Below, one piece after another: positions 26,491 to 45,026 of a stretch of DNA of 64,000 bases. Each line of letters begins with the position of its first letter. The stretch's first letter is position 1. The notes below the pieces were generated by a model, which saw only the letters and a list, made by a program, of their open reading frames with translations, was not told the origin of the DNA and searched no databases. Made by a program: the position numbers and the translations under genes. This DNA comes from Escherichia phage vB_EcoM-Pr121LW, in the sequence record MH752840.1; one strand, given 5' to 3'.

Positions 26491-26949
26491 TTAGAAGTTT
26501 GTTTTTACACGTCCCTTTTCATCAACTTCGTTGTTAGCTAAAAGCGTTACAAAGTCTGTGAAACGGACATGAAGAACTCTTTTCTTATCAAGGTATCCTA
26601 AAGCCACCCCTGAGAAATTTAGCATCAAAGGGGCTAAAGAAGCTCTAGCGCTGAAATGCTGTTGCTCTACCCTTCCAACACCCTTAGTATAGGATGGGTT
26701 GAGATTGTAAGTTCTGAATCCAAGTTTTGTTGGGGCTTTAGAATTAAAAACAACTTTGTAGCGTTTCTTACTCAACTTATGCTCCAGGATAAGCATTCCC
26801 TTATCACCTTTGATAAGTTGAAAATCTGTAAAGTGCTCTTTTAAGACGAAAGGTAGTGCCAGTCCCATCGCCTGGCCTCTTTGTACCGCTGTCTCACCAA
26901 AAGCTTTTGCATCAGTAAGTTCTTTTGTCAAGTCTATGCTTTTGATCAT
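26491..26949 (-). CDS. hypothetical protein
   Basis: ORF. Confidence 0.35.
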   Translation of the reverse strand: MIKSIDLTKELTDAKAFGETAVQRGQAMGLALPFVLKEHFTDFQLIKGDKGMLILEHKLSKKRYKVVFNSKAPTKLGFRTYNLNPSYTKGVGRVEQQHFSARASLAPLMLNFSGVALGYLDKKRVLHVRFTDFVTLLANNEVDEKGRVKTNF

Positions 26950-38291: not shown

Positions 38292-38320
38292 TTGAAATTA
38301 ACAAAACAGTTAGGTATACT
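38292..38320 (+). promoter_or_regulatory. sigma70-like promoter TTGAAA-17-TATACT
   Basis: Hexamers at 38292-38297 and 38315-38320 in the divergent intergenic region. Confidence 0.5.
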
Positions 38321-38766: not shown

Positions 38767-39321
38767 ATGAAATACTTTGTAACAAGCGATACGCACTTTC
38801 TCCACCAGCGGGTCATGGAGTTTGATTCATGTCAAAAACACAGATCTCAATATGATCACAATCTTGACAGTATGAATGCGGGAATCATCACCGAGTGGAA
38901 CTCCGTTGTGTCACCTGCAGACACTGTGTTCCACCTGGGAGATATTGCGTGCACTAATGATAAGAATATCAACAACTTACTTCCAGATATTCTAAATATG
39001 TTGAACGGACATATTATTCTTGTTCGTGGCAACCATGACACAAGGACGACTGTCAGAATTATGAAAGAGTTCGGTCATGAGGTTGTAGATTATTACGAGC
39101 TTCGCCACAACAAGAATTTGATCTGTATGAGCCATTACCAGTTTGCAAAGTGGAACAGAAAGCCTCACGGATCAGTCCAACTGTTCGGTCATGCTCACGG
39201 AACCACACAACAGTTGTTTGGCAGGCAGCTTGATGTCGGTTGGGATGTGTGGGGGAGACTCTTACCATTAGAAGAGGCATACCGTATTGCAATGAGTTTT
39301 GATATTGACAGCAGGGAGTAA
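38767..39321 (+). CDS. calcineurin-like metallophosphoesterase
   Basis: DTHF (motif I), GDIACTND (II), GNHD (III), GHAH. Confidence 0.7.
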   Translation: MKYFVTSDTHFLHQRVMEFDSCQKHRSQYDHNLDSMNAGIITEWNSVVSPADTVFHLGDIACTNDKNINNLLPDILNMLNGHIILVRGNHDTRTTVRIMKEFGHEVVDYYELRHNKNLICMSHYQFAKWNRKPHGSVQLFGHAHGTTQQLFGRQLDVGWDVWGRLLPLEEAYRIAMSFDIDSRE

Positions 39322-39368
39322 TCCCTGCTATTTTAAAGAAAATTGCCACACAAGGAGAATCAGGAGAT

Positions 39369-39719
39369 ATGAAAGATGGGGATAAGCTGCTATATCTTAA
39401 AGTCCCCCTTGAAATACTATCTATGTCAAAAGTTTTGAATGACACAACTGGGGAGGTTGTTGTTCTTGACTTGTATGACAAGATTGTATACTGCTACCTG
39501 CACAACTGGTATAAGCTTGGAGGAAATTCCCGCTTCACACCAAGCACAAGGAAAATTGCAGCAGATGTTGGGATAAAGAAAACAAAAGCAGCAGCGTGCG
39601 TTAAAACTTTAGAATGTGCAGGAGTGGTTGAAACATCCACACAAGGGAGAGGTAAAAGATGCACATTTTCCAAAGTTTTGCCACCAGAAGAAGTTATTCG
39701 AATGTCAACAACTGGTTAG
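39369..39719 (+). CDS. putative DNA-binding protein (HTH)
   Basis: TRKIAADVGIKKTKAAACVKTLECAGVVE helix-turn-helix-like segment; immediately upstream of palindrome array. Confidence 0.4.
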   Translation: MKDGDKLLYLKVPLEILSMSKVLNDTTGEVVVLDLYDKIVYCYLHNWYKLGGNSRFTPSTRKIAADVGIKKTKAAACVKTLECAGVVETSTQGRGKRCTFSKVLPPEEVIRMSTTG

Positions 39720-39794
39720 ACCAGTAAAAACTTAAATATCTGTACTATAAGGGTTTGTATGTTTTATGTTCACCATGGAACAGAAACTATTAAC

Positions 39795-39875
39795 TGTCCG
39801 TGATACGGACACCACTGTCCGTCACGCGGACACATCTGCCCGTAATACGGACACTAACTGTCCGTGATACGGACA
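39795..39875. repeat. Four phased copies of a 17-bp palindrome TGTCCG-N5-CGGACA (39795-39811, 39816-39832, 39837-39853, 39859-39875)
   Basis: Direct reading; centre-to-centre spacing 21/21/22 bp; copy 3 has one substitution (TGCCCG). Confidence 0.7.
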
Positions 39876-39914
39876 CATAAAGAATATAACTAAAATAACT
39901 AAATAATAAAAAAT

Positions 39915-40000
39915 AAAAGATCTAGTACTTATGGTACTAAGTACATATACTTAACTTATGTAGAATATACTAGATCCTAAGTACCATGTTTTAAATTTAT
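39915..40000. promoter_or_regulatory. AT-rich region with nested inverted repeats (candidate origin or regulatory site)
   Basis: AGATCTAGTA...TACTAGATC and ATGGTACTAAG...CTAAGTACCAT inverted repeats in an AT-rich stretch. Confidence 0.35.
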
Positions 40001-40019
40001 TACTTTCTATAGGTAGTGT

Positions 40020-40260
40020 CGGCCCTTCATTGGCACTCGCCTACGAGGGGCGAGATGCCGGGCCTCCATAGTGCACACATGCAGGTCTGTTAACATGTGT
40101 GGGAGCGAAGCGGCGCAGGCCAAAGGCCGAGCACTAATGTGGACCACCGACGAAAGCTTGCCAGCGCCGTAAGGAGTCGGTTGAGAGCCTCCCGCGCGAG
40201 TTTGGATAAAGTTTATGTGTGGAAACGGACAATGAGGCCCCTAAATCGCTCCACAGCCAT
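40020..40260 (+). ncRNA. GC-rich structured noncoding island (candidate structured RNA, class unknown)
   Basis: No ORF of 60 aa or more; several perfect hairpins (CTCGCC/GGCGAG, CACACATG/CATGTGTG, GGCC-AAA-GGCC); GC content well above neighbours. Confidence 0.25.
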
Positions 40261-40358
40261 ATAAACTATACCAAGTAAGGCAATCGCACCAGTTTGATAG
40301 AAAAGCTCGTTACAAAGCGATACAGCGAGTTTTTCTATAACTTGAAGAGGAGGCAGCT

Positions 40359-40937
40359 ATGAGTCCACGCAAAGATGACCGTGAAAAGATTGCAAAACGT
40401 TATCAGAATGAAGAACAGATGGAGAAAACTTTCAAGTGGAAGCCAGGTTTCCAGCGTAATCATTCTAACGCTCGTGATCGTAAGCATCCGGATAAGTGGT
40501 TAACACCGCCAAATGATGGCATGCAGGTTGGTGATGAGAAGGAGCTGTCACCTGGAAAAGATGGCAACTACATTCGCACTAAGGAAGCAGGTCCAAAGGA
40601 TGACAGCTATCTTGTAGATAAGGTTCTTGATGGTATTGATGTGGATGTTGACACTGCACGAAACCTTTTTCTTGGTTGGTATCGTACAGGGTTTTTCGAC
40701 ATCAAGGCTATTCGTCGTGTTTGCGATATTAAAAAGTCTGCCTATGATGATGACTCTCTACATCGCACTCTGAGACAATACTCAGAGAGATACGGTCATC
40801 CAGTCATCACTATTGACGATATTAACGAAGTGATGTATCATGCAGAGGTTGTTGCAGGTAGATTCGGTGATGCATATCTCGGTATTCTTTCTGCAAAAGA
40901 TGAGGTAATGTTAAATAAAATTTACTATGAACGCTGA
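40359..40937 (+). CDS. hypothetical protein
   Basis: AGGAGG RBS; ORF. Confidence 0.45.
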   Translation: MSPRKDDREKIAKRYQNEEQMEKTFKWKPGFQRNHSNARDRKHPDKWLTPPNDGMQVGDEKELSPGKDGNYIRTKEAGPKDDSYLVDKVLDGIDVDVDTARNLFLGWYRTGFFDIKAIRRVCDIKKSAYDDDSLHRTLRQYSERYGHPVITIDDINEVMYHAEVVAGRFGDAYLGILSAKDEVMLNKIYYER

Positions 40938-41136
40938 GGAGCGCTTAATGAACAACCCGGTAGCAAAGAACTGTAATAAGTTCAACAAGTCTGCAATTCA
41001 CACTGACAGGAAAAAGAGCTGGTCTCCTGACATTGACGAGGAGCTTGAGAGTTACTTTGAAGACCTGGTCACTAATGCAGATGAGGTTGCGATTAAAGAA
41101 TACGCAGACAGGAAGGATAAGGCCGGAATCTGTTGA
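40927..41136 (+). CDS. hypothetical small protein
   Basis: ORF overlapping previous stop. Confidence 0.3.
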   Translation: MNAEERLMNNPVAKNCNKFNKSAIHTDRKKSWSPDIDEELESYFEDLVTNADEVAIKEYADRKDKAGIC

Positions 41137-41479: not shown

Positions 41480-41740
41480 ATATCCAATTTAAAGATGAAT
41501 TTGATGGCTTTATCTCCGGATGCTTTGAAACAGGGTTCGGAGAAGACTGAGTTCCCCTCAGAGGGCTTGATAGTGCACCACACTTAAAATGGTAGGGGCA
41601 GCCAGCACATGACGATGTGACCCCAGCCAACCTGTAACAAGGTCGAGCCGAAGCGCGGGTAATAGGCCTCTGGTAACCCACTTGTTGGGTCTTGCTGGTC
41701 CAGGACGCTGGACAAGTCGCAGGGAATACCACCCTGCGGC
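41480..41740 (+). ncRNA. second GC-rich structured noncoding island (candidate structured RNA)
   Basis: Only low-quality ORFs overlap; GC-rich with multiple complementary segments; ends at a consensus promoter. Confidence 0.2.
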
Positions 41741-41744
41741 GAAC

Positions 41745-41773
41745 TTGACAATCAGTATTTGCTATGATAAAAT
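41745..41773 (+). promoter_or_regulatory. sigma70-like promoter TTGACA-17-TAAAAT
   Basis: Consensus hexamers with 17-nt spacer upstream of 41802 gene. Confidence 0.55.
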
Positions 41774-41801
41774 CCACCTATCACGTGATAATGGAGGAAA
41801 C

Positions 41802-42236: not shown

Positions 42237-42311
42237 GCCCTGTTAGCTTAGTGGATAAAGCAGCGGCCTTCTAAGCCGTTGACACTGGTTCGAGTCCAGT
42301 ACGGGGTGCCA
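42237..42311 (+). tRNA. tRNA-Arg (anticodon TCT)
   Basis: Manual cloverleaf: 7-bp acceptor stem, D-stem GCTT/AAGC, anticodon loop CTTCTAA, T-loop TTCGAGT, encoded CCA. Confidence 0.75.
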
Positions 42312-42442
42312 AGTTCTTTTTAATGTAGCTTACTTTAGCAGAGTAAATCTTCGGCAAGTGGCGGTAACCACTTTTACCGATACCTCATAGTTAGTGGTGA
42401 GAACACTAGCTATTTTAAAAAGAATTTAAATATTAGTATTTA

Positions 42443-42530
42443 GGTGAGTTAATTCCGTAGGGGTAGCGGGGCAGACTGTAAATCTGTTATCATTGCGATT
42501 CGGGTGGTTCGACTCCATCACTCACCACCA
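42443..42530 (+). tRNA. tRNA-Tyr (anticodon GTA), long variable arm
   Basis: Perfect 7-bp acceptor stem GGTGAGT/ACTCACC, anticodon arm GCAGA-CTGTAAA-TCTGT, T-loop TTCGACT, CCA; 88 nt. Confidence 0.7.
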
Positions 42531-42644
42531 AATTTATATTTTTAAATGCATAAATTATACAGATAATGGCATTGATATTTATCGTCGTTTATACTAGTCA
42601 CTAACTGCTCGAAAATCAGTGTCATTATCAGTATTGTTTATAAA

Positions 42645-42735
42645 AGAGGGTAGGGAGCAATGGTGCTCAAGCGGTCTTGAAAACCGTCCCGTTGAGGATG
42701 ACTCGATGATGGTTCGATTCCATTACCCTCTGCCA
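42645..42735 (+). tRNA. tRNA-Ser (anticodon TGA), long variable arm
   Basis: Perfect 7-bp acceptor stem AGAGGGT/ACCCTCT, anticodon loop CTTGAAA, T-loop TTCGATT, CCA; 91 nt. Confidence 0.7.
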
Positions 42736-42833
42736 TATTGTTGACCTTGTAATTAAGCGAAAGCCGGAAGCAGAACCGGATTATCAAATGTTACAGTCGT
42801 CATCGCCGACTAGCAACATTGTCAACATACTGA

Positions 42834-42932
42834 GCTAGGTAAGCCCTTTGGCAAGGGCGAGGATTTTTAATCCTGAAAATAGACGAGGTAGTCGTTGAAT
42901 ACATAGGTGGTTCGATTCCACCACCTAGCACC
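42834..42932 (+). tRNA. atypical tRNA-like gene (anticodon loop TTTTTAA, possibly Lys-TTT), ~30-nt extra region, no full CCA
   Basis: Acceptor GCTAGGT/ACCTAGC, D-arm GCCC-TTTGGCAA-GGGC, T-arm GGTGG-TTCGATT-CCACC are clean; anticodon stem and variable region are irregular. Confidence 0.35.
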
Positions 42933-42937
42933 TTTTT

Positions 42938-43013
42938 GCTGATGTAGCACAATTGGTAGTGCAATTGATTTGTAATCAATAGGTTGCAGGTTCAAGTCCT
43001 GCCATCAGCACCA
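42938..43013 (+). tRNA. tRNA-Thr (anticodon TGT)
   Basis: Acceptor GCTGATG/CATCAGC, D-stem GCAC/GTGC, anticodon arm ATTGA-TTTGTAA-TCAAT, T-loop TTCAAGT, CCA. Confidence 0.8.
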
Positions 43014-43014
43014 T

Positions 43015-43089
43015 GGCCCTGTAGCTGGAAGGTTCAAGCAAGCGACTCATAATCGCCAGACGGTGGTTCAATTCCACCCAGGGCCACCA
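43015..43089 (+). tRNA. tRNA-Met or tRNA-Ile2 (anticodon CAT), elongator type
   Basis: Acceptor GGCCCTG/CAGGGCC with G1-C72 pair, anticodon loop CTCATAA, T-arm GGTGG-TTCAATT-CCACC, CCA. Confidence 0.7.
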
Positions 43090-43100
43090 AATAGTAAATA

Positions 43101-43177
43101 CTCCGCGTAGCTCAGCTTGGTAGAGCGCCTGATTTGGGATCAGGAGGTCGAGTGTTCGAATCACTCCGTGGAGACCA
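43101..43177 (+). tRNA. tRNA-Pro (anticodon TGG)
   Basis: C1-G72 acceptor pair as in bacterial tRNA-Pro, D-stem GCTC/GAGC, anticodon arm CCTGA-TTTGGGA-TCAGG, T-loop TTCGAAT, CCA. Confidence 0.8.
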
Positions 43178-44281: not shown

Positions 44282-44706
44282 TGTCTAAGATTTACGGACC
44301 GTGTTCTGAAAAGCAGAAGATGATCCTCGAAAACGATGCAGATATTTTGGTAATCGGCGGTGCCGCAGGGTCTGGCAAGTCGTTCCTCTTGCAGTTGATG
44401 CCGCTTAAAATTATCGATGACCCCCACAGCTCTGTGGTTATGTTCCGAAGAACAACCCCACAGTTGGAAGGTGAGGGTGGACTATGGCCTAAAGCAGTAG
44501 CTATTTATAGCGATCTGCCTGAAAACATTAAGCCAAAGTTCAGAGAGAAGGATCATAAGTTCATTTTTCCACGGTTTGATCCGAACACTGGCAAGTGGGA
44601 TAGAAGCAAAAAGGGAGCTGTTGTAAAATACTGCCACATGGAGTATGTACAAGATAAGCTTAACCATCAAGGGCTTGAGTACACCATGGTTTGCTTCGAT
44701 GAGGGT
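44281..44706 (+). CDS. terminase large subunit, exon 1 (ATPase N-terminal part)
   Basis: Walker A GGAAGSGKS and Walker B MVCFDE; frame closes with TAA right at the intron start. Confidence 0.7.
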
Positions 44707-45026
44707 TAATTTGTAGCTCTCGTAAAACCTCCCTAATTGCGGGGAAATCTTTACTATTAATACCACCAACCTGTCATGGTAACATGATAGAGGCTTCGAA
44801 GAGAGATCGAAGGTATGGTAACAGTGTGTTAATTTAGATAATCCGCAGCGAAGCATCCGAGAGGATGAACGTTCAACGACTAGTCGAAAGACGTAGAATC
44901 AAGCGATTCGAAACGGGAGGGTAAGCGGTTGTTGTCGCTTATAAGATATAGTCTGGTCTGCATGGAGACATGCAGCTGCCTGAAAAATGGCGGGGCAAGA
45001 CTAGCGACCTTGCCCGAACATAGACG
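44707..45026 (+). ncRNA. group I self-splicing intron (ORF-less) in the terminase large subunit gene; boundaries approximate
   Basis: Conserved elements in order: P AATTGCGGGGAAA (~44737), Q AATCCGCAGC (~44842), R GTTCAACGACTAGTC (~44870), S AAGATATAGTC (~44940); intron begins GGT|TAATT like T4 td; no ORF inside. Confidence 0.65.

Follow-up and report, generated by a model that had tools for sequence, protein, structure and literature searches.

A candidate iteron-type replication origin beside a winged-helix gene in rV5-like phages

In Escherichia phage vB_EcoM-Pr121LW (MH752840.1), a 639-bp intergenic region, together with the gene immediately upstream of it that encodes a small winged helix-turn-helix (HTH) protein, probably constitutes the primary replication origin module, of the iteron type, of the rV5-like phages (genus Vequintavirus). 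The region occupies positions 39720–40358, and the gene positions 39369–39719, of the 64,000-nucleotide stretch of DNA that was analyzed (hereafter, the window, to which all positions refer). An earlier reading of the bare sequence (the original prediction) had noted that the layout resembles a replication origin or a regulatory switch; this is supported by the present analysis, with the origin favored by the homology of the HTH protein, the co-variation of this protein with the adjacent repeats across relatives, the extremes of AT and GC content within the region, and the analogous layout of a group of Escherichia coli plasmids. A role in the regulation of transcription could coexist with a role in replication. 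The rV5-like phages (Vequintavirinae) have been isolated widely and find use against pathogens, E. coli O157 among them; their origin has never been mapped. The outcome of the analysis is a precise origin candidate, a candidate initiator with its recognition sequence, variants of this specificity, and alleles with two, three, or four sites.

Positions 39300–40400 match Escherichia phage Murica (KT001917 / NC_041871, reverse strand) with 100% identity and a further 116 Vequintavirus records with 88–98% identity, and the intergenic region lies between the Murica genes gp71 and gp70. Gp71 carries the depositor's label “DNA-binding protein” and the RefSeq name “replication initiation protein,” and “putative transcriptional regulator” is a further label given by GenBank depositors; the 21-bp repeats are marked as “repeat_region,” without interpretation, in several GenBank records. 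The repeats and the replication initiation label are therefore already present in the databases, and the kind of system is well known. New are an origin model that integrates these features for the phage group and includes its natural variants in specificity, a stand-alone initiator candidate in a lytic phage that resembles RepA of the Vibrio cholerae satellite PLE, and a covariation-supported GC-rich element common to the phages and to uncharacterized plasmids that carry capsid genes. The features of the locus are the following.

39369–39719, + strand: gp71 (Murica gp71, rV5 ORF79), 116 amino acids, stand-alone winged HTH protein, candidate origin-binding initiator
39720–39771: conserved spacer block, containing the left arm of an 18-nt inverted repeat (39729–39746) and a promoter-like site on the − strand
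39795–39811, 39816–39832, 39837–39853, and 39859–39875: four 17-bp palindromes TGTCCG-N5-CGGACA, presumed sites of gp71 dimers
39876–40001: AT-rich block with the lowest-GC window of the 64 kb, candidate DNA-unwinding element
40016–40210, + strand: GC-rich structured non-coding element with the highest-GC window and compensatory changes
40021–40025 with 40060–40064, and 40032–40041 with 40048–40059, + strand: hairpin A
40097–40106 with 40186–40196, + strand: long-range helix P1, with two invariant U.G (T.G) pairs
40145–40150 with 40175–40180, + strand: hairpin P3, with the 24-nt loop GAAAGCTTGCCAGCGCCGTAAGGA
40211–40296: variable linker, with an isolated, non-conserved half-site AAACGGACA at 40223–40231 and a CCCCTAAATCGC motif that is also found in the plasmids
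40297–40338, + strand: conserved hairpin with a 13-bp stem, 92% complementary, ending 8 nt before the gp70 ribosome-binding site
40359–40937, + strand: gp70, 192 amino acids, hypothetical protein, PHROG 12226, first gene downstream

Phased palindromes and the AT-rich block

The four phased copies of TGTCCG-N5-CGGACA, 21–22 bp apart, that were reported in the original prediction are confirmed, the third copy (39837–39853) with one mismatch (TGCCCG). Their starts are separated by 21, 21, and 22 bp, that is, by two helical turns. A search of the 64 kb with this pattern, allowing up to two mismatches, recovered the four array sites, one two-mismatch site at 26553, and nothing else, compared to 1.0 ± 0.9 matches in shuffled sequences, none of which (0/100) reached five. 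The array is retained in 118 genomes, in two to four copies. In an alignment of 13 Vequintavirus genomes, from which all the conservation figures given below are derived, most genomes possess four copies, whereas A135, nimi, and FFH2 possess three and YN3 possesses two, and these differences are clean deletions of 21-, 22-, or 42-bp units; 10% of the array columns vary. An 18-nt inverted repeat (39729–39746 and 39940–39957, 15/18 complementary) flanks the array on both sides. The palindromes are presumed to be the binding sites of gp71 dimers. To the left of the array, a sigma-70-like site on the − strand (TGAACA-17-TATAGT, 39772 to 39744, matching 9/12 consensus positions) points into the 3′ end of gp71 and could give rise to an antisense transcript; on the + strand, a simple scan that covered sigma-70 promoters found no such site within 39720–40358.

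Next to the array, positions 39877–40001 make up the lowest-GC 60-, 100-, and 125-nt windows in the 64 kb, with 15–19% GC versus 20–27% for the next lowest. The block begins with an A-rich tract (39876–39917) that contains a tandem ATAACTAAA repeat and continues with GTAC-rich inverted repeats (39918–39990), in which GATCTAGTA (39919–39927) pairs with TACTAGATC (39968–39976), and ATGGTACTAAG (39931–39941) pairs with CTAAGTACCAT (39977–39987). The original prediction, which described an AT-rich stretch with nested inverted repeats, was right about the composition and the repeats, but the latter are interleaved, not nested.

For the assessment of conservation, the third codon positions of gp71 and gp70 served as the neutral baseline, at which 33% of the alignment columns are variable. 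The variable columns in the remaining parts of the locus amount to the following.

39700–39771, end of gp71 and spacer: 14%
23 bp preceding the array: 70%
39876–39917, A-rich tract: 2.4% (1/42)
39918–39990, inverted-repeat block: 11%
39991–40015, linker: 36%
GC-rich block: 12.8%
40211–40296, linker: 29%
Hairpin preceding gp70: 9.5%

The non-coding region is, accordingly, a succession of conserved blocks that alternate with fast-evolving linkers, and the AT-rich block, with its nearly invariant A-rich tract, is the most conserved part. The conserved blocks vary less than the synonymous baseline and are thus subject to purifying selection at least as strong as that affecting first and second codon positions. 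Composition, position, and conservation make the AT-rich block a candidate DNA-unwinding element.

The gp71 protein and the exchange of protein-repeat cassettes

That the gene upstream of the array encodes an HTH-like protein, as originally predicted, was borne out by profile searches and by an AlphaFold2 model, in which gp71 folds into a single winged-helix domain (mean pLDDT, the predicted local distance difference test score, of 81). Gp71 defines PHROG 12838, “replication initiation protein” (E = 5e-80), and its PHROG matches are replication-initiation families. The top match among solved structures is 4RO3 (phmmer E = 3e-6; Foldseek E = 1.7e-5, TM 0.67; 28–29% identity), the N-terminal domain of the RepA_N-type initiator RepA of PLE (PMC7145576). 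The next Foldseek matches, which rank above generic MarR/LexA-type regulators, are the staphylococcal RepA_N initiators 4PQL, 5KBJ, and 4PT7 (E = 8e-4 to 5e-3), to which the similarity of gp71 at the sequence level is marginal (E ~0.8). Among predicted viral structures, the named matches comprise “Replication protein” and “Replication initiator protein” entries, a DUF6945 protein, and two ICP1 proteins. DUF6945 is matched by 20/34 gp71 relatives and HTH_36 (PF13730) by 26/34, and the precomputed annotation of the gp71 cluster includes PF13730. Among characterized proteins, gp71 is in both sequence and fold closest to the DNA-binding domain of a RepA_N-type initiator, that of PLE RepA, of which it would be a relative consisting of this domain alone.

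At the BLAST level, gp71 is limited to Vequintavirus. An exhaustive HMMER scan of 1.8 billion proteins yielded only 8 hits, some of which, long and repetitive, are spurious, and a protein-pattern search of IMG/VR found no wider relatives. Longer relatives of gp71 (P0009, P0011, and L023) and the plasmid HTH protein described below (L022) have an acidic C-terminal tail whose last residue is aromatic (...DEAPF, ...DPDAPF, ...ESGEDF, and ...DSAIPY), a feature that gp71 itself lacks. Such tails resemble the C-terminal tips of SSB and T7 gp2.5, which recruit replication proteins. In a metagenomic relative (L018), the gene for a 195-aa HTH_36 protein is followed, after ~1.4 kb, by a PolA gene of like orientation, and the divergent intergenic stretch on the upstream side of the HTH_36 gene (L018 3240–3520) contains repeated ..AGGTACA motifs.

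Comparison of the loci of relatives indicates that the protein and the repeats co-vary as a cassette, as a specific protein-DNA recognition pair predicts. In the IMG/VR contig L023, gp72 and gp70 are 89% and 83% identical, at the amino acid level, to those of Murica, and the GC-rich element is kept. The gp71 position is occupied by a 143-aa homolog with 28% identity (E = 7e-7), and the array consists of TGCATCAGAT-type palindromes (ATCTGATGCA..TGTATCAGAT), 21–33 bp apart, followed by a different A-rich tract. The metagenome contig L116 represents the same variant. Gp70 is kept even where the winged-helix gene and the repeats have been exchanged. Farther afield, in other genera of the subfamily, gp098 of phage PVP-SE1, a distant gp71 homolog, adjoins ATTCCC-N4-GGGAAT repeats spaced 24 bp apart and then an AT-rich tract, and the HTH protein of Klebsiella phage VIK251, also a distant homolog (PHROG 8102, “replication initiation protein,” E = 7e-36), adjoins GTGCTCAWTTTGAGCAC-type repeats spaced 23 bp apart, again followed by an AT-rich tract. 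The gp71-type palindrome was not found in the loci of L023/L116, PVP-SE1, or VIK251. “O-like” PHROGs were matched only by the VIK251 homolog and, weakly, by the plasmid protein.

The AT-rich tracts of PVP-SE1 (L004 2780–2850) and VIK251 (L005 2590–2630) are clearly homologous to each other (AAAACAATAAAACATAAGATCTA...) and carry clustered GATC sites, four within ~70 bp in PVP-SE1, which is not the case in Murica. Sequence homology of the Murica AT-rich block to these tracts was considered and rejected, the resemblance being one of layout only.

The GC-rich element and the 13-kb plasmids of E. coli

About 100 bp to the right of the AT-rich block, positions 40099–40198 form the highest-GC 100-nt window in the 64 kb (66%). 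The GC-rich segment full of hairpins that the original prediction had pointed out is indeed present here, with several near-perfect hairpins. Homologs of this element were detected only in Vequintavirus phages and in 13-kb E. coli plasmids. Searching E. coli genomes and plasmids with blastn located them in unannotated DNA of small circular plasmids of 13.2–13.7 kb (NZ_CP020521.1, L022; NZ_CP178698.1, L025; NZ_CP035869; CP148565), NZ_CP043822 being a trimer of the unit; with the metagenome contigs given below, the family spans ~13.2–13.9 kb. A metagenome scan with 18-mers matched 111 stretches, of which 80 were fetched as loci and checked by local blastn; among these 80, the only real homologs were the rV5-like L058, L116, L122, and L124 and two contigs of the 13-kb type and size, L051 and L071.

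Comparison of the phage and plasmid sequences indicates that the hairpins of the GC-rich element are under selection for base pairing. In hairpin A, GGCACTCGCC/GGCGAGATGCC of the phages corresponds to GTCACTCTCC/GGAGAGATGAC of the plasmids, with two two-sided compensatory changes, and in hairpin P3, ACCGAC/GTCGGT corresponds to GCTGCC/GGCAGC, with three. The P3 loop, GAAAGCTTGCCAGCGCCGKAAGGA, is identical in phages and plasmids, K being the single variable position, which varies within the phages as well. These five two-sided changes, along with the conservation of the loop, point to a selected secondary structure with a sequence-specific loop. Within the genus, where the sequences are too alike, two-sided changes occur at 0/96 predicted pairs. 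Helix P1 requires U.G (T.G) pairs on the + strand, and the + strand therefore appears to be the folding strand; in the hairpin before gp70, one stem position is G.U on the + strand in most phages, corresponding to a C.A mismatch on the − strand. Two further candidates were discarded, namely, a compensatory change in P1 of L023, which is one-sided (G-C to G.U), and a pseudoknot between CGGCGC at 40111 and GCGCCG at 40164, where most phages have an ATA insertion.

The description of the region as gene-free in the original prediction stands insofar as there is no coding signature, but open reading frames (ORFs) longer than 40 aa do exist in the GC-rich part, at 40097–40264 (+ strand) and 40007–40147 (− strand), and are annotated in rV5 (ORF78) and in phages of the BASEL collection. 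The variable columns are distributed across the three codon positions of these ORFs without bias (10/12/10 and 5/8/5), ATG starts are lacking, and Alma contains frameshifts, so that protein coding in this segment was rejected. Open frames in several registers are to be expected at 60% GC.

Each of the plasmids contains a single large non-coding region (2.3–2.9 kb), in which the elements follow the same order and orientation as in the phage: phased repeats peculiar to the plasmid, a short AT-rich tract, a GC-rich hairpin region that ends in the common core, sigma-70 promoters, and an operon that encodes a 288–303-aa HTH protein (L022 10595–11503, − strand). The repeats are of four types among five plasmids, and between two plasmids, the HTH protein is 63% identical in the segment that includes the HTH region versus 73–97% elsewhere. 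No homology between gp71 and the plasmid HTH proteins was detected by BLASTP, and gp71-type palindromes were not found in the plasmids. Because an autonomous plasmid must hold an origin, for which the sole large non-coding region is the obvious candidate, the layout in common supports the origin reading for the phage.

Plasmid genes are annotated as encoding major capsid, tape-measure, and baseplate proteins; the capsid protein is ~22% identical to the capsids of other large myoviruses, with no rV5-like phage among the hits. A search of the literature did not turn up a description of these 13-kb elements, which may be phage satellites or miniature phage-plasmids. A more far-reaching scenario, to which we assign little probability, would make the GC-rich element a folded module that accompanies origins and spreads by horizontal exchange, either a priming signal or an RNA recognized via its 24-nt loop, with plasmid-borne satellites tapping the replication of rV5-like helpers. 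Such satellites would parallel PLE, which exploits phage ICP1.

A tentative alternative for the GC-rich element itself, which we consider possible although the less probable one, is that it functions as a structured RNA. It could act in cis within the gp71-gp70 transcript, as a leader or a processing signal, or be a small stable RNA, and its place next to the origin would reflect nothing more than the intergenic space on offer. Transcription probably covers the whole region on the + strand, with a promoter-like site at 39305–39334 and no terminator-like site in 39000–41000, and the stems co-vary while the 24-nt loop is invariant, as would be the case for a recognized RNA loop. The apparent folding strand, as judged from the P1 and gp70-hairpin pairs, is the + strand, too, but folded single-stranded DNA tolerates G.T pairs as well, and this evidence thus does not separate RNA from DNA. 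Likewise, the + strand of the core folds 4–6 kcal/mol better than the − strand in the phages, whereas both strands fold equally well in the plasmids, where, moreover, the element is located upstream of the sigma-70 promoters of the operon and a covering transcript is not evident. The folding z-score is modest, about −2 on either strand. Finally, the Rfam scan that had been suggested along with the original prediction gave no family match at either gathering or permissive thresholds (Rfam 15, positions 39700–40400), the best sub-threshold hit being rli43, with 24 bits versus a cut-off of 100.

Proposed initiation model, alternatives, and comparison with known systems

Under the proposed origin model, gp71 dimers would bind the two to four palindromes and, with the sites spaced two helical turns apart, would all lie on one face of the DNA. 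The resulting protein-DNA complex would strain and open the adjoining AT-rich, near-invariant block, and the gp4-like primase-helicase, the PIF1/RecD-like helicase, and the PolA-type polymerase of the phage would then load at the opened block. These three proteins are encoded by rV5-like phages (PMC3606486), which makes an initiator that acts by remodeling only conceivable, as discussed for PLE. The GC-rich element would serve the origin as a folded single-strand element of the + strand, most likely as a signal for priming or single-strand initiation, or as a barrier that sets where unwinding occurs; alternatively, it could be a structured part of a transcript running through the origin. In line with this model, the locus combines phased repeats, an adjoining AT-rich block, and a nearby winged-helix gene that co-varies with the repeats, and, as expected of a single-strand initiation signal, conserved hairpins on one strand are located near the candidate unwinding element.

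Several observations weigh against an origin. Gp71 itself scores just below the Pfam cut-offs for DUF6945 (27.4 bits vs 28) and HTH_36 (24.5 bits vs 25), does not match Phage_rep_O or RepA_N of Pfam at E values up to 1, and, with 116 aa and no second Pfam domain, lacks a helicase, loader, or primase-recruiting domain, having no counterpart of the C-terminal domain of RepA_N, lambda O, and Rep initiators; below 4RO3, its profile matches to solved structures are ordinary MarR/SlyA-type regulators. The neighbors in the locus are genes for a phosphoesterase, an NTPase, and an RNA ligase, none of them replication genes, and the polymerase and helicase genes are placed elsewhere in the rV5 genome (PMC3606486). 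Enrichment of GATC (Dam/SeqA) sites in the Murica region was rejected, there being 2 sites in 639 bp compared to 5.5 per kb across the window, and DnaA boxes occur at the chance level (two one-mismatch matches vs 189 in the 64 kb). The cumulative GC-skew minimum of the window, at 38307, is only 1.5 kb from the region but coincides with a switch in transcription direction, and because phage skew tracks transcription, it does not provide independent evidence; the authors of the rV5 genome paper saw the same skew change, could relate it only to switches in the direction of transcription, and did not define an origin (PMC3606486). A literature search found no replication, binding, transcriptome, or origin-mapping data for the genus. 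Lastly, the repeats of PVP-SE1 and VIK251 occupy the divergent promoter region that immediately precedes the winged-helix gene, as they would for an autoregulated repressor.

The latter arrangement fits the main rival explanation, an operator array or regulatory switch, which we regard as unlikely. In this case, gp71 would be a dimeric repressor or activator, the palindromes would be cooperative operators controlling either gp71 itself or the operon from gp70 to the tRNAs, and the AT- and GC-rich parts would be promoter or leader sequence. The small size of gp71, with its single winged-helix domain, its profile matches to MarR/SlyA/LexA-type regulators, the palindromic symmetry of the sites, and the label “putative transcriptional regulator” are all compatible with this possibility, and, given that initiators commonly autoregulate, both roles could coexist. 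However, the Murica array lies downstream of its own gene, with no + strand sigma-70-like promoter in or beside it, and the closest characterized relative of gp71 is an initiator, not a regulator. An operator array would also leave unexplained the most AT-rich and most conserved 125 bp next to the array as well as the presence of repeats, an AT-rich tract, and the GC-rich element as the sole large non-coding region of the plasmids.

A packaging, partition, or centromere-like site (of the ParR/parC or pac type), with the element common to the plasmids being a packaging signal for rV5-like phages, is highly improbable: although arrays of short repeats with small dimeric proteins are typical of centromere-like sites, one member of the gp71 family produced a weak hit to the centromere-binding SoPB_HTH (E = 0.0039, in a wider family scan), and the plasmids, with their capsid, tape-measure, and baseplate genes, might be satellites, which often copy cis-acting sites of their helpers, a lytic phage has no need for partition, families of partition proteins and terminase small subunits are not matched significantly by gp71, the plasmids lack gp71-type palindromes, and no rV5-like phage was among the hits of their capsid protein.

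If the origin model holds, a stand-alone protein that resembles the N-terminal domain of RepA would raise the question left open by the PLE study, namely, how DNA is handed over to a T7-like machinery without a recruiting domain. The folded GC-rich element, in turn, ties lytic phages to E. coli plasmids with capsid genes and hints at an exchange of origin modules or a satellite-helper relationship. A defined origin would be useful for phage engineering and for infection-dependent replicons.

Some additional features were observed downstream of the locus. At 41520–41745 lies a second non-coding block rich in GC (~61%), which ranks with the most GC-rich windows in the 64 kb and shows no blastn similarity to the 40016–40210 element; a near-consensus promoter (TTGACA-17-TAAAAT, ~41746–41774) directly follows it, upstream of gp67. 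A tRNA cluster at 42237–43177 comprises Arg, Ser, Thr, Met, and Pro tRNAs identified by ARAGORN, a tRNA at 42443–42527 detected only with Rfam, and a 99-nt tRNA-like gene (42834–42932) for which an odd anticodon of four bases was called. Judging from feature coordinates, the distance from the tRNA-Arg to the next tRNA appears to be ~130 nt longer in the window than in KT001917, in which case the window would not match that record exactly outside 39300–40400. A group I intron at 44697–44975 (Rfam RF00028, 84 bits, E = 6e-20) apparently interrupts a protein-coding gene.

Among the known systems, PLE is the closest in terms of the protein. PLE RepA binds semi-palindromic direct repeats in the non-coding PLE origin, and replication of PLE via RepA occurs only with the lytic myovirus ICP1, whose SF1B helicase is required (PMC7145576). 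Gp71 and the N-terminal domain of RepA are homologs, and rV5 too encodes a PIF1/RecD-like helicase. Unlike RepA, gp71 has no C-terminal domain and belongs to a lytic phage rather than a satellite, and the sites described here consist of 6-bp arms around a 5-bp center, in contrast to the 13-bp arms around a poly-A tract in PLE. The staphylococcal RepA_N initiators of pSK41 and pTZ2162 (4PQL, 5KBJ, and 4PT7) share the winged-helix fold and act as dimers on repeated origin sites, but the origins of these plasmids are inside the rep gene, and their initiators carry a C-terminal domain specific to the host.

Phage lambda provides two comparisons. The operators OR and OL of CI and Cro are clustered 17-bp palindromes at roughly two-turn spacing (~23–24 bp in lambda) that are cooperatively bound by dimers of a small HTH protein, as predicted for dimers of gp71. 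They differ in that the lambda operators overlap promoters, none of which was detected here on the + strand, and in the folds and families of the proteins involved; furthermore, a model based on OR/OL has no place for the adjoining AT-rich and GC-rich blocks. The lambda origin is a parallel in layout. Each of its iterons is an imperfect inverted repeat of 19 bp, and origin function requires no more than two of them together with the AT-rich tract (PMC7466680). As in lambda, four dyad-symmetric sites adjoin an AT-rich tract, with natural variants here possessing two to four sites, the region is probably transcribed through, and the specificity cassettes differ between relatives, as they do in lambdoid phages. 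The lambda sites, however, are inside the O gene, whereas those described here lie downstream of a gene for a DNA-binding domain only, and the C-terminal domain of O recruits P and DnaB, whereas gp71 is not matched by Phage_rep_O.

In origins of iteron plasmids, such as those containing ssiA/ssiB of IncQ RSF1010, the G-site of R1, and the GC-rich flank of RK2 oriV, repeats, an AT-rich region, and a GC-rich hairpin segment are found within a few hundred base pairs. The GC-rich element of the phages differs from these in its length of ~200 nt (up to ~330 nt in the 13-kb plasmids) and its conserved 24-nt loop, and has no sequence similarity to the initiation signals compared, but the order of the three components is the same in the iteron-plasmid origins, in the phage region, and in the 13-kb plasmids.

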